Source: an uncultured archaeon
Lineage (GTDB): Archaea; Thermoproteota; Nitrososphaeria; Nitrososphaerales; Gagatemarchaeaceae
Direction of reading: 5' to 3'
NCBI GenBank assembly: GCA_963817525.1
Contig: CAWFOU010000001.1
Span: 288,001 to 352,000, forward strand
Length of the DNA: 64,000 bases
This document shows, in pieces, positions 30,412 to 36,626 of the stretch; position 1 is the stretch's first letter, and each line of letters opens with the position of its first letter. Made by a program: the position numbers and the translations under genes. The notes beneath the pieces were generated by a model. That model had not been told where the DNA came from. It saw nothing but the letters and a program-made list of their open reading frames with translations, and ran no database searches.

Positions 30412-31516
30412 ATGCGTCTCGGCGGCGTGGCCTTGTCTATTGTGACTTCCCGCACCTGACATCTGCGCTGAAATAGGTCTCGCCATTCTCCATTTACGAA
30501 AACCTCAGGCCAAGACTTGGCGCAGACAGTAGGACTCTGGCTGGCAGAAGGTGACCACAAAACGCTCCGCGAGGTTACATTCACCAACAATGACCCGAAA
30601 CTCATTTCCTTTTTTCACCTTGTTCTTTGGAAATACTTCAGGCCACGCAACCCCGCGAGAATCTATGTGTATTGGCCGTCTGAGGACATCACTTTCCAAC
30701 GGTCTGTCCCGGGTGCGGTCTACAGGATTTATGTTGACCGTCGGGCCAACACGCCCTATTACATTTACAGAGTGTCTGGAGTTGAATTGGTGAGAGTCTG
30801 GAGAAGGACGGAGCGGGCGATATGCGCTGAACCGAGAAATTATCGAGGAATACTTCAGGGTTTTTTCGCCGGCGAGGGCAACGTCAAGGACATCGTCGGC
30901 CACCATTCCAGAGTCCTCAGAATCGCTCAAGGCAAGAGACTCGGTCTTCTTGAGCGGATTTTGCGCTCTTTCGATGTGAGCTTCACTTACGAACCTTCGG
31001 AAAGAGCCTATGTAATTTCGGGACGAGAGAATCTAGAGAAGTTATGGAGAATCAGCATAAGCGAACTGCATTCGAAGAAACAGGCAAGATTTACAGCCAT
31101 GATGTCCTCGTACCAACAGTATCATTACGGGCGTCAGTTTCTCGGTCCCCGAATTTCAGAGATTCTCTCTTCCCCGCTGACCACTACCGAAGTTGCCGAC
31201 AGAGTCGAGGTAAATCAAGGGTTAGTCAGGTCCTGACCGCGCTCAACCGGAATGGTGAGGTCGAAATGTTCAAGGTAAGAAGCTCGTGCTACTGGATTAG
31301 GAGCGACCAACGATGCGTGATAATTTCCAACGAGAAGTCCAAAATCCTCAAATTGCTTTCTTCCCCTCTCCGAACATGCGAGATCGCCCGGCGTGTTGCT
31401 CGGACGGAAAAGTCGGTTTCGAAAAGACTAGCAGAGTTGATAGGCTCGGACTGGTTGAGAGAGCAAACTCTAATTGGCGAGCAATCGAGGTATCAAAGCG
31501 GGTGATTGTCAAATAA
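30412..31516 (+). pseudogene. Two-motif LAGLIDADG endonuclease-like gene with tandem C-terminal wHTH, frameshifted
   Basis: GLWLAEGD..VTFTNND and GFFAGEG motifs; C-terminal frames give SPLTTTEVADRV/KSRVSQVL and SPLRTCEIARRV..SVSKRLAEL/RLGLV; shifts near 31208 and 31439; lower GC than flanks. Confidence 0.75.
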
Positions 31517-32192
31517 AGCTCATCGCTGGGGTCGATGAGGCCGGGAGAGAGCGCGACGAAAAGTCGCCTCCCCGCGAGGTTGTGTACTCGGCCCCCTCGC
31601 GGTCGCCGGCGTCTCGATAGAATCGTCGAGATTGGAGGAGCTCGCCGAGCTCGGCGTCAAGGACTCGAAGATGCTCTCGCCAGAGCAGCGGGAGGCGATG
31701 TACCCCGAGATCCTGAGGATCTGCGACCGCGTGGAGGTCTCTCGCATCCCGCCGAAGATGATAGACCGCTACGTCAGCAGGGGGAAGAAGTACAGGCGCC
31801 TCAACTATCTCGAGACCATCCACATGGCGAAGGTAATCGACGCGCTGGGGGTCGACGAGGTCTTCGTGGACGCCCCGGACGTCAACCCGGTGAGGTTCAA
31901 GGCGGAGCTTGAGGAGCTGCTTTCGTGCAGGCCGAGGATAGTCGCCGAGCACAAGGCGGACGTGAACTACGCCGTCGTCTCCGCCGCGTCGATCGTCGCG
32001 AAGGTCGAGAGGGACAGCGACATCGCCCAGCTCAGGGAGATCCACGGGGACTTTGGGTCCGGCTACCCCTCCGATCCCGACACGATAGCGTTCCTCGAGT
32101 CGTGGGTCAAGGCCAACAGCTCGCAGCCAGAGTTCGCCAGGAAGAGCTGGAAGACCTGGGAAAGGATCTTCGTCTACGCTACCCTGGACTAG
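31474..32192 (+). CDS. rnhB: Ribonuclease HII, intron-containing: join(31474..31547,31577..32192)
   Basis: IAGVDEAGR|GCVLGPLAVAGV is restored only after removing 29 nt; then GVKDSK, HKAD, VSAASIVAKVERD, GSGYPSDP; TTG 31474 start is tentative. Confidence 0.93.
31548..31576 (+). other. 29-nt BHB mRNA intron in rnhB
   Basis: CGGG-AG^A-GAG-c-GCGAC-gaaaa-GTCGC-CTC-CCCG-CG^A; 4-bp helix CGGG/CCCG with two 3-nt bulges. Confidence 0.88.
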
Positions 32193-32193
32193 C

Positions 32194-32883
32194 TCAGGGC
32201 ATCTTCGCCGAGATCAGCGCGTGGTCCTTGTCAAAGGGGCGCAGGTCGATCACCCTCTCTACGACGAACCCCGCCTCGTTCAGCTTCTGCGCCTCCTCCC
32301 TGAACACTAGCTTGGGGTCCTTGAGCTGGTCGATGCTCCTGGCCTTCACGATGAGAAGGAGCCTCCCTCCCTCCTTGAGGTGCCTCTTCGCGTTCTCCAT
32401 GGCAATCTCCGTCTGGTCCCTCTGCGCGATGTCGCAGTAGACGACGTCCATCTTCCCGAACTCCCCGAACCTCTCCGTCTCCCGGGCGTCCGAGATGAAC
32501 GGGATGACGTTCCCCCTCGCCTTCGCTACCTTCTCGAGGAACTCCCGGCCCACGCGGGCGGACATCTCCACGCCGACCACCAGCCCCTCGCCCCCCACGA
32601 TGTCCGAGACGTGCGAGGCCGTGGTGCCCGTCGAGGCGCCCAGGTAGAGGACCTTGTCCCCCGCCTTGATGATGTCAGGGTCCAGCTCGCCCTTGAGGAT
32701 GGCTCCGGCGAGCTTGCTCCTGTAGGGGTCCCAGCTGCGGTACTCACTGCCGTGGATCCTCAGAAGGTCTTCGTCGTATACCCTATTGCCCGGGACGAGG
32801 TTTCTTGTAAAAACGCTTGTCCTTCCGTCCTCCCGGTTTCCTCTCCGCCCCCGGCCTTCCATAACGAGGACGTTGGTTGTCAT
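32194..32883 (-). CDS. flpA: Fibrillarin (box C/D 2'-O-methyltransferase)
   Basis: WDPYRSKL, VLYLGASTGTTASHVSD, DIAQRDQ, KARSID, PFDKDH. Confidence 0.96.
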   Translation of the reverse strand: MTTNVLVMEGRGRRGNREDGRTSVFTRNLVPGNRVYDEDLLRIHGSEYRSWDPYRSKLAGAILKGELDPDIIKAGDKVLYLGASTGTTASHVSDIVGGEGLVVGVEMSARVGREFLEKVAKARGNVIPFISDARETERFGEFGKMDVVYCDIAQRDQTEIAMENAKRHLKEGGRLLLIVKARSIDQLKDPKLVFREEAQKLNEAGFVVERVIDLRPFDKDHALISAKMP

Positions 32884-34024
32884 TTCGGCGGAACTCTCTT
32901 CGCTGCTCGGGTCGCGGCGGCGGTGGCTCCTTATACTTTATCTTGATCTCGGCGAGCCTCTTCTCGAACAGGCCCGTCAGCTCGTTGGCCTTGGTCCCCC
33001 TGTAGTAGTCGATCCGGGCGGCGATGGCTATCTTGTTGGCCAGGGTCCTAGCGATCTTGCCCCTCTGCCACTTCGGGGCCATGTGGACCGCCTCGTGCTG
33101 GAAGAGTATGCCGTGCTTCGGGGGCCTCGACCCCGTCCTTATGGCCCTGAAGAGCGCCTTCTCCGCGCCCAGTACCTGTATCGTGCTCGCGGGCAGCCTC
33201 GCCATCCTCTCGAGCCCCCCGGCCCTCGCGATGAGCCTCGCGCCGATCGTTGCCCCTGCGACCTGCGTGATGTTGGGGGCGATCTTGTTCATGGTCGAGT
33301 CGACGGTCTCTGCCATCTTCTCCCTCTCGTTGGCGGTCTTGACCGCGAGCTCGGCCAGGCCGACGATCCGATGCATGTCCTTCTCGGAGATCGTCCCTCC
33401 CTTGGACTTCTCCGACGCCAGCATTATCGCCTCTGCCTTCTTGCCGGCGTAGCCCTGCTTCTCAAGCGCCTCTTCGTCGAAGGTCCCGCGCCTCCCTATC
33501 TCGATTATCAGCTTGGCGAGGGCGAGGTTGTCCTTCAGGATGTCCTGCAGCTCGGGGAAGTGCAGGCTATACCATTCCATCGTCCTCTCCGTCGTGATAT
33601 TGAGGAAGCGGTCGAGCTCGTCGAGGGCCTGGATGGCGTTGACGAGGTGCAGGTCCTCCTTGGAGGAGGCCTCGCTCACCTCGTGCTCGGCCGCCGCGAT
33701 CGCGCGGGCCCTCGCCTCTCCTATGGCGCTCCCAGCGTCTCGAGCGAGCCCCGCCTTTGCCATTATCGCAGCCTTCCTAGAGTCGAGGTCGTCGCGCTCC
33801 TCGTCGGTCGCTATCGACGTCTCGATCCCGAACTCCTCCATCTTCTCCTTCGCAGGCATGCTGGAGACCTTGAGGCGGGAGATGCCCTTGCGCTTGACCC
33901 CCTCGGCGACCCTCTCCAGCTTCTCATCCCTCTCCATCGCCTCGGCCCTCTCCGAGACGAGGACGTCGTCCCCCTGGACGACTATGAACCCCGCCTCCGT
34001 CTCGTAGAGAATCGGCTCTGGCAA
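32783..34024 (-). CDS. nop5: Box C/D RNP protein Nop5 (Nop56/58)
   Basis: EWYSLHFPEL, APN, PASTIQVLGAEKALF, PKHGILFQ, RGKIAR..AARIDY; start estimated at TTG 34024. Confidence 0.95.
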   Translation of the reverse strand: MPEPILYETEAGFIVVQGDDVLVSERAEAMERDEKLERVAEGVKRKGISRLKVSSMPAKEKMEEFGIETSIATDEERDDLDSRKAAIMAKAGLARDAGSAIGEARARAIAAAEHEVSEASSKEDLHLVNAIQALDELDRFLNITTERTMEWYSLHFPELQDILKDNLALAKLIIEIGRRGTFDEEALEKQGYAGKKAEAIMLASEKSKGGTISEKDMHRIVGLAELAVKTANEREKMAETVDSTMNKIAPNITQVAGATIGARLIARAGGLERMARLPASTIQVLGAEKALFRAIRTGSRPPKHGILFQHEAVHMAPKWQRGKIARTLANKIAIAARIDYYRGTKANELTGLFEKRLAEIKIKYKEPPPPRPEQRREFRRNDNQRPRYGRPGAERKPGGRKDKRFYKKPRPGQ

Positions 34025-34153
34025 GAAAAATTCGATTCCAGCGTCCGCGGGGCACGGATAAAGGTTGTCGCTGCGGGTTGAACTCACGCTCTTCGCCAAT
34101 CGGCGGCTGAGGTCCTTCGAACCGACGTGGGCGGTTAAATCATCTGATTCGAT

Positions 34154-34793
34154 GTGTTGATGTTGGAACTGAGGTTCTGTGGGTCCTGTGGAAGGGCGCT
34201 GGAGAGGACGAAAAACGCCAAGTTTTGCGACAGGGCTTGCTATGCGCAGGCAGTCAGAGATGGCATCACCTCGAACAATGGCCGCTTTCGAAAGGGCAAC
34301 CCGTCCCCCAAAAAGGCAGGACGCTCGAATCTTGGGTCGGGGAGGAGAGAGCTCAAGAGATCAGAAACAGGATGTCTCAATCGTCGAAAGGGAAGGCCCC
34401 TTGGCTTAGAAGGTTGAACGAAGATGCGGAAGTCTTGGCGAAGAGAAAGGCTTCACGAAGATTCCACGAAGCCACCGTCCAAGAACTCGTCAAGCAATTC
34501 AGGAAGCTTGGTTGGAAGTGTTACACGCTGTCCGAATACGTCAGGGAAACGAGAACACCTGACGCGATTCTGTTTGACGGGAGAGAGCTCGTTGCGCTGG
34601 AGTGGAGCTGAAGAAGAAATGGAAGCCCAGCGCTGAGTTGATGACCCGGCGCCTGACCGATCTGAACGACCAATCGAGGTTCTTTGATAGGACAAGCCTG
34701 GTATTTCCAGACGAGAGGACTGAGCTGACCAAACAGATCCCCTCTTTCGTGGACGAGATATTGACTCACAAAAGATTATATCGGGACTCTTGA
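34154..34793 (+). pseudogene. Homing-endonuclease-like gene (Zn finger + NUMOD3-like + PD-(D/E)xK-type nuclease), two frameshifts
   Basis: CGSCG..FCDRAC; FRKGNPSPKK/GRTLE..EIRNRMSQSSKGKAPW; TPDAILFDGRELVALE/VELKK; shifts near 34316 and 34602; lower GC. Confidence 0.7.
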
Positions 34794-34823
34794 TGCTCGG
34801 AATCGGAGGACTGAAAACAAAAC

Positions 34824-35019
34824 ATGCCGACCCACGGGAGTCAGCAGCTAAGAGCAAGTCTTACTGCCTCCAATCACTAAGGCCGGAAAAGTTCGCAGCC
34901 AAACGCCGAAAATTGAGGGAAAGCCCCACAAGGGTAAGATCCCCAAGGTCAGGAACACCCGGACCTACGTGAAGAGATTCACACTAAAGAGAAAGCCCGG
35001 ACAGAATTGGAGACTTTAG
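34824..35019 (+). CDS. rps30e: 30S ribosomal protein S30e, intron-containing: join(34824..34842,34874..35019)
   Basis: Spliced product [54 protein letters not shown] (54 aa); absent from the ORF track. Confidence 0.93.
34843..34873 (+). other. 31-nt BHB mRNA intron in rps30e
   Basis: GGAG-TC^A-GCAG-c-TAAGA-gcaag-TCTTA-CTGC-CTCC-AA^T; 4-bp helix GGAG/CTCC with two 3-nt bulges. Confidence 0.9.
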
Positions 35020-36626
35020 ACTCCAATCCTCCCTCGGAAGGAGAGCTGGCGGCAGTCTCCTCGATTGTCGCCTCCATCCTCTCAGGGGACGTCACGTCCC
35101 GCCCCCACCTGGAGCGGGCCAAGAAGGAGGCCGCGAAGCGCTATCGTCTCGGCAAGTTCCTCAAGAACTCTCAGATCTACCTCGCGCTCTCACCAGAGGA
35201 GCGAGAAGGGAGGAAGGAGATGTTCCGCGTCCACCCCCGGAGGAGCGCCTCCGGAATCGTCATCGTCACTGTCTTCACGTCCCCTGCCAGCTGCCCCCAC
35301 GGCACCTGCGTCTACTGCCCGGGCGGCCCCTCCATGGGGACGCCCCAGAGCTACGTCCCTGACGGCCCCAGCATGAGAGGCGCGCGCGGGGTCGGCTTCG
35401 ACCCCTTCCTCCAGGCGCAGAAGATGCTCAGGAAGTACCTAGACCGCGGGCACGAGGCCTCGAAGGTCGAGCTGATGGTGGAGGGCGGGACCTTCCTCGC
35501 GATGCCGAGGGGATACCAGGAGTGGTTCATCAAGGGGGCGTTTGACGGCCTCAACTGCGCGCAGACTCCTTCTGTGTCTCTCGAGGAGGCACACACGGCA
35601 AACGAGTCGGCGGAGTACAGGTCAGTGGGCCTCACCATAGAGACCAAGCCTGACTGGTGCCGGCCCGAGCACGTCGACATGCTCCTCTCGTACGGGGTCA
35701 CCAAGGTGGAGATAGGGGTCCAAGCCCTAAGGGACGACATACTCGCGAGGAGCAACCGGGGCCACACCGTCCAGGACACGCTCGACGCGTTCCGCGTGGC
35801 GCGGGACGCCGGGCTCAAGGTCGCGGCCCACATGATGCCGGGGCTCCCCGGCTCCAACCCGGAGGACGACCTCGCCGACCTCCTGCGGCTGTTCGAGGAA
35901 GAGTCCCTCCGCCCCGACATGATGAAGCTCTACCCCACCACCGTCGTGAAGGGGACGGCCCTCGCGAAGATGTGCGAAGCGGGGCTCTACGAGCCCTACG
36001 ACCTCGAAACCGTCGTCAGCCTAATCGCCGAGATGAAGGTGCACGTCCCGCCCTGGCACAGGATAATGAGGATACAGCGGGAGATACCCGAGGCCGACAT
36101 CGCGGCCGGCAACAAGGCGGGGAACCTCAGGGAGCTCGTCCTCGCAAGGGTGAAGGCCGACGGCCACTCGTGCGGCTGCATAAGGTGCCGCGAGGTGGGC
36201 ATGGACACCCCCTCCGACCTCCAGGGCGGCGAAGAGGGCGACCTCGTCCTGCGCGTCACGAGCTATCCTGCCTCGGGAGGCGCCGAGGTCTTCGCCACCT
36301 ACGAGTACGAAAGGTCGGGCAAGCTCGCGGGGTTCGTCAGGATGCGCTCCCCGTCCGAGAGGTCGCACCGGCCGGAGATGGGCGGAGCTTGCATAGTGAG
36401 GGAGCTCAAGGTCTACGGGAGGGTGGTCTCTGTGGGCTCGAGGGACGAGCAGGCCTTCCAGCACCGGGGGCTGGGACGCTCCCTCCTCGAGGAGATGGAG
36501 AAGGAGGCCTCTGAGCGCTTCGACGCTCGCACGCTCCTGGTGATGAGCGCCGTGGGGACGAGGAACTACTATAGGAAGCACGGCTACGAGAGGTCGGGCC
36601 CCTACGTGGGCAAGAGTCTGAAATAG
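35007..36626 (+). CDS. elp3: Elp3 tRNA uridine(34) acetyltransferase (radical SAM + KAT)
   Basis: CPHGTCVYCPGG, PQSY, GGTF, ETKPD, RIQREIP, VRELKVYG, QHRGLG. Confidence 0.95.
   Translation: METLDSNPPSEGELAAVSSIVASILSGDVTSRPHLERAKKEAAKRYRLGKFLKNSQIYLALSPEEREGRKEMFRVHPRRSASGIVIVTVFTSPASCPHGTCVYCPGGPSMGTPQSYVPDGPSMRGARGVGFDPFLQAQKMLRKYLDRGHEASKVELMVEGGTFLAMPRGYQEWFIKGAFDGLNCAQTPSVSLEEAHTANESAEYRSVGLTIETKPDWCRPEHVDMLLSYGVTKVEIGVQALRDDILARSNRGHTVQDTLDAFRVARDAGLKVAAHMMPGLPGSNPEDDLADLLRLFEEESLRPDMMKLYPTTVVKGTALAKMCEAGLYEPYDLETVVSLIAEMKVHVPPWHRIMRIQREIPEADIAAGNKAGNLRELVLARVKADGHSCGCIRCREVGMDTPSDLQGGEEGDLVLRVTSYPASGGAEVFATYEYERSGKLAGFVRMRSPSERSHRPEMGGACIVRELKVYGRVVSVGSRDEQAFQHRGLGRSLLEEMEKEASERFDARTLLVMSAVGTRNYYRKHGYERSGPYVGKSLK

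Follow-up and report, generated by a model that had tools for sequence, protein, structure and literature searches.

The closest described counterparts of the elements reported here are the introns of cbf5 pre-mRNA in Crenarchaeota, bulge-helix-bulge (BHB)-type introns of 16-44 bp that interrupt a protein-coding gene, are gained and lost lineage by lineage and have been tied to hetero-oligomeric endonucleases (PMC2738675). According to Yokobori 2009 (PMC2738675), these introns are too short to encode a nuclease, so that how they were gained was left unexplained, and cbf5 figures as the sole archaeal protein-coding transcript with confirmed splicing as of that publication. Here we consider a stretch of 64,000 nucleotides, hereafter the window, from an uncultured archaeon of the Gagatemarchaeaceae (GCA_963817525.1, contig CAWFOU010000001.1, positions 288,001 to 352,000), in which the genes for RNase HII (rnhB) and eS30 are interrupted near their 5′ ends by inserts of 29 nt (micro-intron A) and 31 nt (micro-intron B), respectively. 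We posit that both are mRNA micro-introns with a BHB motif of the relaxed HBh′ form, that the hairpin shape they have in common is coincidental, and that each belongs to a nuclease-linked cassette spread by collaborative homing; from the sequence comparisons set out below, we would put the probability of this reading at roughly 0.6. Like the cbf5 introns, these are short BHB introns in protein-coding genes with lineage-specific gain and loss; unlike them, they occur in another lineage and in other genes (rnhB, two sites in eS30, and carB, once the whole genome and its relatives are included), all four sites lie within the first ~25 codons and, carB excepted, a nuclease gene stands alongside. 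In the genome that holds the window (G000; other G-numbers denote genomes of relatives and L-numbers their gene loci), cbf5 was matched unsplit over its TruB_N domain, the part of the gene to which this statement applies.

Nucleases are familiar partners of archaeal rRNA introns, I-DmoI being a named example of the LAGLIDADG type. These rRNA introns are described as BHB introns that carry the open reading frame (ORF) of a LAGLIDADG homing endonuclease (PMC2738675). The likeness to our loci lies in the pairing of BHB splicing with a nuclease of the LAGLIDADG type, which would mobilize the unit, but the rRNA intron contains the ORF, whereas the present introns are far too small to do so and the nuclease gene is free-standing. 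The non-canonical tRNA introns of Thermoproteales, likewise short BHB introns, transpose to new sites as a sequence family; here, in contrast, no sequence family is detectable and each intron type is restricted to its own site. Collaborative homing pairs the free-standing nuclease F-CphI with the neighboring intron-containing psbA of cyanophage S-PM2, the intron preventing self-cleavage and the nuclease giving mobility (PMC6083498). There, too, a nuclease gene adjoins an ORF-less intron, which in our case would shield the carrier allele; yet the psbA intron is a self-splicing group I phage intron and its behavior was shown experimentally, whereas here a BHB intron spliced by host proteins is proposed for an archaeal chromosome on the strength of co-occurrence. 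In fractured genes, the two parts of a split intein have a free-standing homing endonuclease gene between them (PMC2677866). They resemble our loci in that a free-standing nuclease gene interrupts a host gene, which is repaired after expression; their repair takes place at the level of protein, and that predicted here at the level of RNA.

The RNase HII reading frame is lost behind the GVDEAGR codons; 29 nt further on, the gene continues in a different frame with GCVLGPL. Removal of micro-intron A joins AG to A, which creates Arg-Gly and regains both the DEAGRG motif and the frame; moreover, exon 2 matches Pfam RNase_HII from profile position 9 of 199 onward, so the first eight positions must come from exon 1. 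The 29 nt start with AG, fold into a 3-bp stem (GAG/CUC), a bulged C at 31552, a 5-bp stem and a GAAAA loop (minimum free energy −12.0 kcal/mol, z −3.3, with 1 of 200 shuffles equally good) and end in CCCG plus CG, of which CCCG pairs with CGGG in exon 1 and CG contributes bulge nucleotides. The eS30 gene is interrupted after MPTHGS and a single further base, and the remainder of the Leu codon follows 31 nt later, together with TKAGKVR; taking out micro-intron B regains the eS30 frame and the conserved motif at the junction. It, too, starts with AG and consists of a 4-bp stem (GCAG/CUGC), a bulged C at 34848, a 5-bp stem and a GCAAG loop (−9.1 kcal/mol, z −2.2; 5 of 200 shuffles equally good), ending in CUCC, which pairs with GGAG in exon 1, and AA, which belongs to the bulge. 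In both inserts, two 3-nt bulges on opposite strands lie around the resulting 4-bp helix and complete the BHB. On these points an initial annotation of the window, which had described the AG start, stem, bulged C, 5-bp stem and pentaloop of both introns as well as the four terminal nucleotides complementary to exon 1 plus two bulge nucleotides, was accurate throughout when the introns were read and folded.

Several lines of evidence bear on whether the inserts are real introns. A scan of both strands of G000 over 109 lengths for a BHB, defined as a 4-bp helix, 3-nt bulges and an inner helix of at least 3 bp, returned 482,956 hits, or ~7.9e-4 per position and length; at this rate, and with the junctions fixed independently by protein homology, the exact fits are not attributable to chance. 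Presence was counted over 30 RNase HII and 30 eS30 loci: the rnhB insert occupies the identical site in 7 of the former and is 29 nt long every time, and the eS30 insert (site 1) does so in 6 of the latter, always with 31 nt. Close relatives have uninterrupted alleles of both genes. All 13 orthologous copies maintain the BHB central helix, each intron family showing a single G-U change (in rnhB, CG to UG in one ortholog). Within the eS30 site-1 set, compensatory changes affect 5 of 13 pairs and 96% of cells are paired, a result matched by none of 500 shuffles; in the rnhB set, the fixed G000 structure is paired in 87% of cells because the bulge moves. Finally, both inserts are present in the DNA, as short-read contigs from four soil runs of one study cover them with neither gaps nor joints. 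No RNA run was listed for window 31450-35050. We regard both as probably genuine mRNA micro-introns, with splicing predicted.

Candidates for the machinery that such splicing would call for are encoded in G000, which has two PF01974 endonuclease genes and RtcB. The two paralogs fit the heteromeric type of splicing endonuclease, as judged from domain matches in an assembly with a contamination figure of 8.75%. This type is described as the usual one of Thaumarchaeota and as one of two that cut non-canonical introns (PMC5829648). RtcB itself is matched in two pieces (profile positions 1-50 and 49-426) about 1.4 kb apart within a single 996-amino-acid open frame (G000 C1:1102130-1104943), and its gene looks as if it carries an intein.

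What sets these introns apart is their company. Each of the patchily distributed micro-introns (that is, all except the one in carB) lies just downstream of its own nuclease gene, which is free-standing and ends 30-60 nt upstream of the first exon of the host gene. These include a second eS30 intron, absent from G000, that interrupts AGK|VR as a plain hairpin of 19-20 nt in 9 of the 30 loci (L038-L040, L046-L050, L052) and is found together with the site-1 intron in G021 and G024, in a gene of ~55 codons. Co-occurrence was scored by tblastn, over related genomes that are not independent, so that the counts overstate the support. A gene with LAGLIDADG-like and winged-helix parts is present at all seven rnhB loci with the intron and at none of the 23 others; a PD-(D/E)xK-like gene accompanies the eS30 site-1 intron at 4 of 6 loci (0/24 elsewhere); and a zinc-finger LAGLIDADG gene accompanies the site-2 intron at 7 of 9 (0/21 elsewhere). 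A tree of RNase HII and fibrillarin covers 21 of the 30 loci, the other 9 having been dropped for want of a long match to both proteins; on it, each of four very close genomes shows its own combination of the three units. The pairing of introns with free-standing nuclease genes hints at how introns this small may spread and is the part worth following.

At rnhB, the region amounts to ~1.16 kb in G000 as against 28 nt in G012, and the BLAST alignment breaks there. A relic of the original RNase HII 5′ end is separated from the gene by the inserted block, and between the nuclease block and micro-intron A the 5′ codons are repeated in a synonymously recoded form. The nuclease block has a GC content of ~0.50 in surroundings of ~0.65. 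Its G000 ORF scores 20.5 bits against Pfam LAGLIDADG_3, below the cut-off of 22.5 (E 5.9e-4), and lacks 4 nt near 31203 when compared with G019. In G019 the gene is a single open ORF of 289 amino acids that continues into the winged-helix part; this intact copy reaches 28.6 bits against Pfam TrmB (cut-off 25.6), and the G000 piece gives weak hits only. The possibility that the whole 1.1-kb block is one large BHB intron was considered and set aside, as no combination of a 5′ site near 30412-30470 with a 3′ site near 31440-31600 gave a BHB together with the correct frame.

The gene linked to eS30 site 1 is intact in G018, as an ORF of 212 amino acids. The protein has a zinc ribbon and 52 unnamed homologs, and an alignment of 21 homologs shows invariant E..PD..ExK columns; searches for a Pfam family or a PHROGs match found none. 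Foldseek searches with its AlphaFold2 model (mean predicted local distance difference test score, pLDDT, 77) returned Hjc Holliday-junction resolvases and other PD-(D/E)xK nucleases as the best, weak matches (E 6e-3). A metagenomic homolog, P0013, was called as reading into the eS30 start in another frame, with the same adjacency on an independent contig. The genomes with the site-2 intron have a different gene there, which combines a C2H2 zinc finger with a LAGLIDADG domain; the G012 protein scores 23.7 bits against LAGLIDADG_1 (cut-off 23.1) and matches PHROG 5046 at E 4.8e-19. Two stretches of G000 (C1:676726-677139 and C1:880819-881187) match it weakly by tblastn (24-29% identity, E 1.7e-5 and 2.4e-4), and these may be other LAGLIDADG genes or inteins.

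Table. Predicted features of the rnhB and eS30 loci, in window coordinates
Feature	Position	Strand	Remarks
Relic of the original RNase HII 5′ end (ATG + 5 codons)	30412..30430	+	aligns with the intact start of the G012 allele, which lacks intron and element
LAGLIDADG-like homing endonuclease ORF	30517..31236	+	frameshifted in G000; two LAGLIDADG-like motifs by eye
Winged-helix (TrmB-like) DNA-binding part of the rnhB-linked nuclease gene	31044..31505	+	other frame in G000; two winged-helix repeats
RNase HII exon 1 (codons LIAGVDEAGR)	31516..31547	+	
Micro-intron A, 29 nt, relaxed BHB (HBh′)	31548..31576	+	central helix 31542-31545/31571-31574; bulges 31546-31548, 31575-31577
RNase HII exon 2 to stop codon	31577..32192	+	Pfam RNase_HII E 2.7e-40, profile positions 9-198 of 199
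Zn-ribbon + PD-(D/E)xK-like nuclease gene	34154..34793	+	low GC; frameshifted in G000 by a 1-nt deletion near 34601
eS30 exon 1 (MPTHGS + first base of Leu codon)	34824..34842	+	same protein stretch continuous in intron-less relatives
Micro-intron B, 31 nt, relaxed BHB	34843..34873	+	central helix 34837-34840/34868-34871; bulges 34841-34843, 34872-34874
eS30 exon 2 to stop codon	34874..35019	+	83-98% identical to eS30 of other genomes in the genus

The starts of both host genes are unusual. RNase HII exon 1, whose true start is uncertain, has AAG at the codon that aligns with the ATG of intron-less alleles; an in-frame TTG lies at 31474. More generally, intron-bearing RNase HII alleles have AAG, ACG or AGG in place of the relatives' ATG, and among eS30 alleles that lack the site-1 intron, ACG often follows a good Shine-Dalgarno-like GGTG or GGAG (window 31516-31518; loci L002, L004, L007-L010, L031, L036, L041-L045). 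The odd start codons suggest non-AUG initiation or coupled re-initiation after the TAA of the nuclease gene.

From the observed anatomy, conservation and co-occurrence we infer splicing, nuclease activity, a target site and a direction of transfer as follows. In the transcript, the last nucleotides of each intron would pair with exon 1 to form the BHB, the remainder folding into a hairpin that provides the inner helix; cleavage in both bulges would fall to the tRNA splicing endonuclease and ligation of the exons to RtcB, regaining the frame. At the level of DNA, in the most likely life history, the free-standing homing endonuclease would cut the intron-less allele, and the nuclease gene would be copied during repair along with the intron and the recoded 5′ end. 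By splitting the target site, the intron would then protect the carrier allele. In G000, both nuclease genes have meanwhile decayed by frameshift.

Several observations weigh against this reading. (i) The outer exon 1-exon 2 helix of the strict hBHBh′ motif is not formed at either intron, just one pair being present beside the bulge; its absence makes the motif a relaxed HBh′ form, which needs an enzyme of broad specificity. (ii) The precise form that the two introns have in common is uncommon among chance hairpins (10 of 2,738, or 0.4%, in the null set described below), so that coincidence is not a comfortable explanation by itself. (iii) The PD-(D/E)xK assignment draws on a motif and weak fold matches. 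(iv) The nuclease gene was not found at 2 of 6 intron-bearing eS30 site-1 loci or at 2 of 9 site-2 loci. (v) No nuclease gene adjoins the carB intron, the immediate upstream neighbor being carA. (vi) The divergence of the nuclease blocks parallels that of the host genes (77, 72 and 61% identity as against 82, 70 and 66%). (vii) Recent horizontal transfer is not indicated by the block identities, and vertical descent with repeated loss fits them as well.

The last four points are those to which an alternative account appeals, in which the introns are real but their linkage is unrelated to homing: selfish nuclease genes would have landed in promoter-proximal spacers and been inherited vertically with the introns thereafter, followed by joint loss. 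Parallel divergence of element and host, the widespread carB intron without a nuclease neighbor and intron-bearing loci that lack the nuclease gene all count in its favor. Three nuclease families, however, are matched to three intron sites, with no nuclease gene present without its intron in 68 intron-less loci; the rnhB block has a recoded second 5′ end, with the old start left behind; and genomes as close as the four mentioned above differ in their combinations of units. We consider this account unlikely, if still the most serious competitor to cassettes spread by collaborative homing.

The initial annotation took another view, according to which both introns belong to a single selected and mobile RNA family, possibly derived from tRNA introns, that adapts to each target via its last 6 nt and in which the bulged C and the purine-rich pentaloop might form a protein-recognition element. 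The shared form is real, and its rarity among chance hairpins counts in favor of this view, as do the AG start of both introns and of most carB introns and the lone unpaired base on the 5′ arm, which persists in 6 of 7 rnhB and 5 of 6 eS30 copies. Covariance models point the other way. In the whole of G000, models built from the six eS30 copies (R1) and the seven rnhB copies (R2) each recovered their own intron at ~61 bits, with no other match scoring above 21 bits; the two did not cross-match at E values up to 10. Neither model matched a tRNA gene, and no link to tRNA introns was seen. Unfiltered searches of 231 nt around the other intron yielded a partial R1 match of 6.4 bits and 2.8 bits for R2, at or below the spurious hits there, and the three best other matches in the genome (~20 bits) lie in in-frame coding sequence. 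Applied to 151 genomes across the order, among which just two others represent the genus, R2 found the G000 copy alone. The tie of both inserts to mobile-element genes is supported; a single selected family is not, and the genome has no further copies.

Nor do the features singled out as a recognition element hold among orthologs: the lone base may be C, G, A or U, it follows 3, 4 or 5 pairs (3+1+5, 4+1+4, 5+1+3), and loops range from 3 to 7 nt. Two rnhB copies out of 7 and two eS30 copies out of 6 (one with U) show the exact form of bulged C, 5-bp stem and pentaloop, which is absent from all 21 carB and 9 eS30 site-2 introns, these being plain hairpins; it is not conserved across the other introns of the lineage, the outcome that the initial annotation had itself named as refuting its view. 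Because the rnhB 5+1+3 form is present in both clades of the genus, and so looks older, and the G000 form is confined to G000 and G009, the likeness to the eS30 intron looks late and derived. The null set consisted of BHB-like hairpins of the same size in G000: 12,000 of 30,973 candidates were sampled, which gave 2,738 single hairpins with at least 8 pairs, and 145 of these (5.3%) have a single nucleotide on the 5′ arm as their sole bulge, 22 (0.8%) combine such a bulge with a 5-nt loop, and the 10 cited above have a 5-bp apical stem as well. These frequencies apply to a resemblance chosen after the fact, in features that depend on one another; an interior of even length with a loop of odd length forces one unpaired base. 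The common hairpin shape in G000 most likely arose by coincidence, under constraints of size and motif, rather than being the mark of an RNA family or protein-binding element, and a single selected family is distinctly improbable.

We consider it highly improbable that the genes with inserts have become pseudogenes or that, with no splicing, frameshifting or ribosome hopping lets them be read: the odd starts of both genes in the genus (ACG, AAG or AGG as against the relatives' ATG) would agree with it, but downstream exons are open and conserved in all carriers, compensatory changes preserve the helices, no +1 or −1 shift can carry a ribosome across inserts that measure 29, 31 and 19-20 nt and contain in-frame stops, a codon is divided by the eS30 insert, and the take-off and landing codons at rnhB do not match (AGA versus CGA), as those flanking the gap do in the phage T4 gene 60 bypass.

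A further micro-intron lies outside the window in carB, which encodes the large subunit of carbamoyl-phosphate synthase. This 20-nt intron (G000 C1:1120748-1120767), a BHB intron between KIGEAGE and FDYSG, is in G000 a 5-bp stem with a triloop and no bulge. Of 22 genomes read across the order (loci L195-L214), 21 have an insert at this site and one, G030, is uninterrupted; the inserts are 17 to ~31 nt long and show strong covariation in the stem and central helix. It was the sole addition from a census of G000 by motif and coding score, a procedure of low sensitivity that also recovered rnhB and eS30; with loose thresholds the census gave 135 hits and was dominated by noise. The best-looking internal candidates turned out to be adjacent genes or in-frame coding sequence, as in the case of an Sm protein. 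When G000 was compared with the whole 965,717-nt contig G012:C5, one (16 nt) of 311 gaps of at least 10 nt inside alignments fitted a BHB of the gap length, and the BLAST alignments broke exactly at both window introns.

The lineage would thereby have four intron sites in three genes beyond cbf5, one of them (carB) conserved across the order, and the pairing of three of the four with nuclease genes makes a mechanism of origin and spread directly testable. It is also conceivable, albeit more tentatively, that these pairs exemplify a hitherto undescribed type of mobile unit in archaeal chromosomes, which would explain how archaeal protein-coding genes gain introns too small to encode anything: a free-standing homing endonuclease gene, LAGLIDADG or PD-(D/E)xK, together with a BHB micro-intron of 19-31 nt in the first codons of a neighboring essential gene, rendered harmless by the tRNA-splicing enzymes of the host and making the carrier allele immune, with three independent pairs in one genus. 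Gene callers will mis-annotate such genes as truncated or frameshifted. A literature search of incomplete coverage, with subscription journals mostly outside its reach, found no description of BHB introns in rnhB, eS30 or carB or of nuclease-linked BHB micro-introns.

G000 is an archaeal assembly of 2.82 Mb and 61% GC. ARAGORN reports just 33 tRNA genes in it, and in several of them the predicted introns are long (up to 1.7 kb) or in odd positions; the tRNA genes of G000 probably contain many non-canonical introns that ARAGORN misses or misreads. The clear canonical tRNA introns are, in a rough statement from noisy ARAGORN and BHB scans, 14-17 nt long and free of hairpins of the kind described here. 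Near-identical or identical candidate stretches occur twice on small contigs (C2/C7 and C10/C7), which seem to duplicate parts of C7, consistent with the 8.75% figure for contamination or redundancy. Between 31.5 and 35.0 kb of the window, the gene order is RNase HII (+), fibrillarin (−), Nop5 (−) and eS30 (+).

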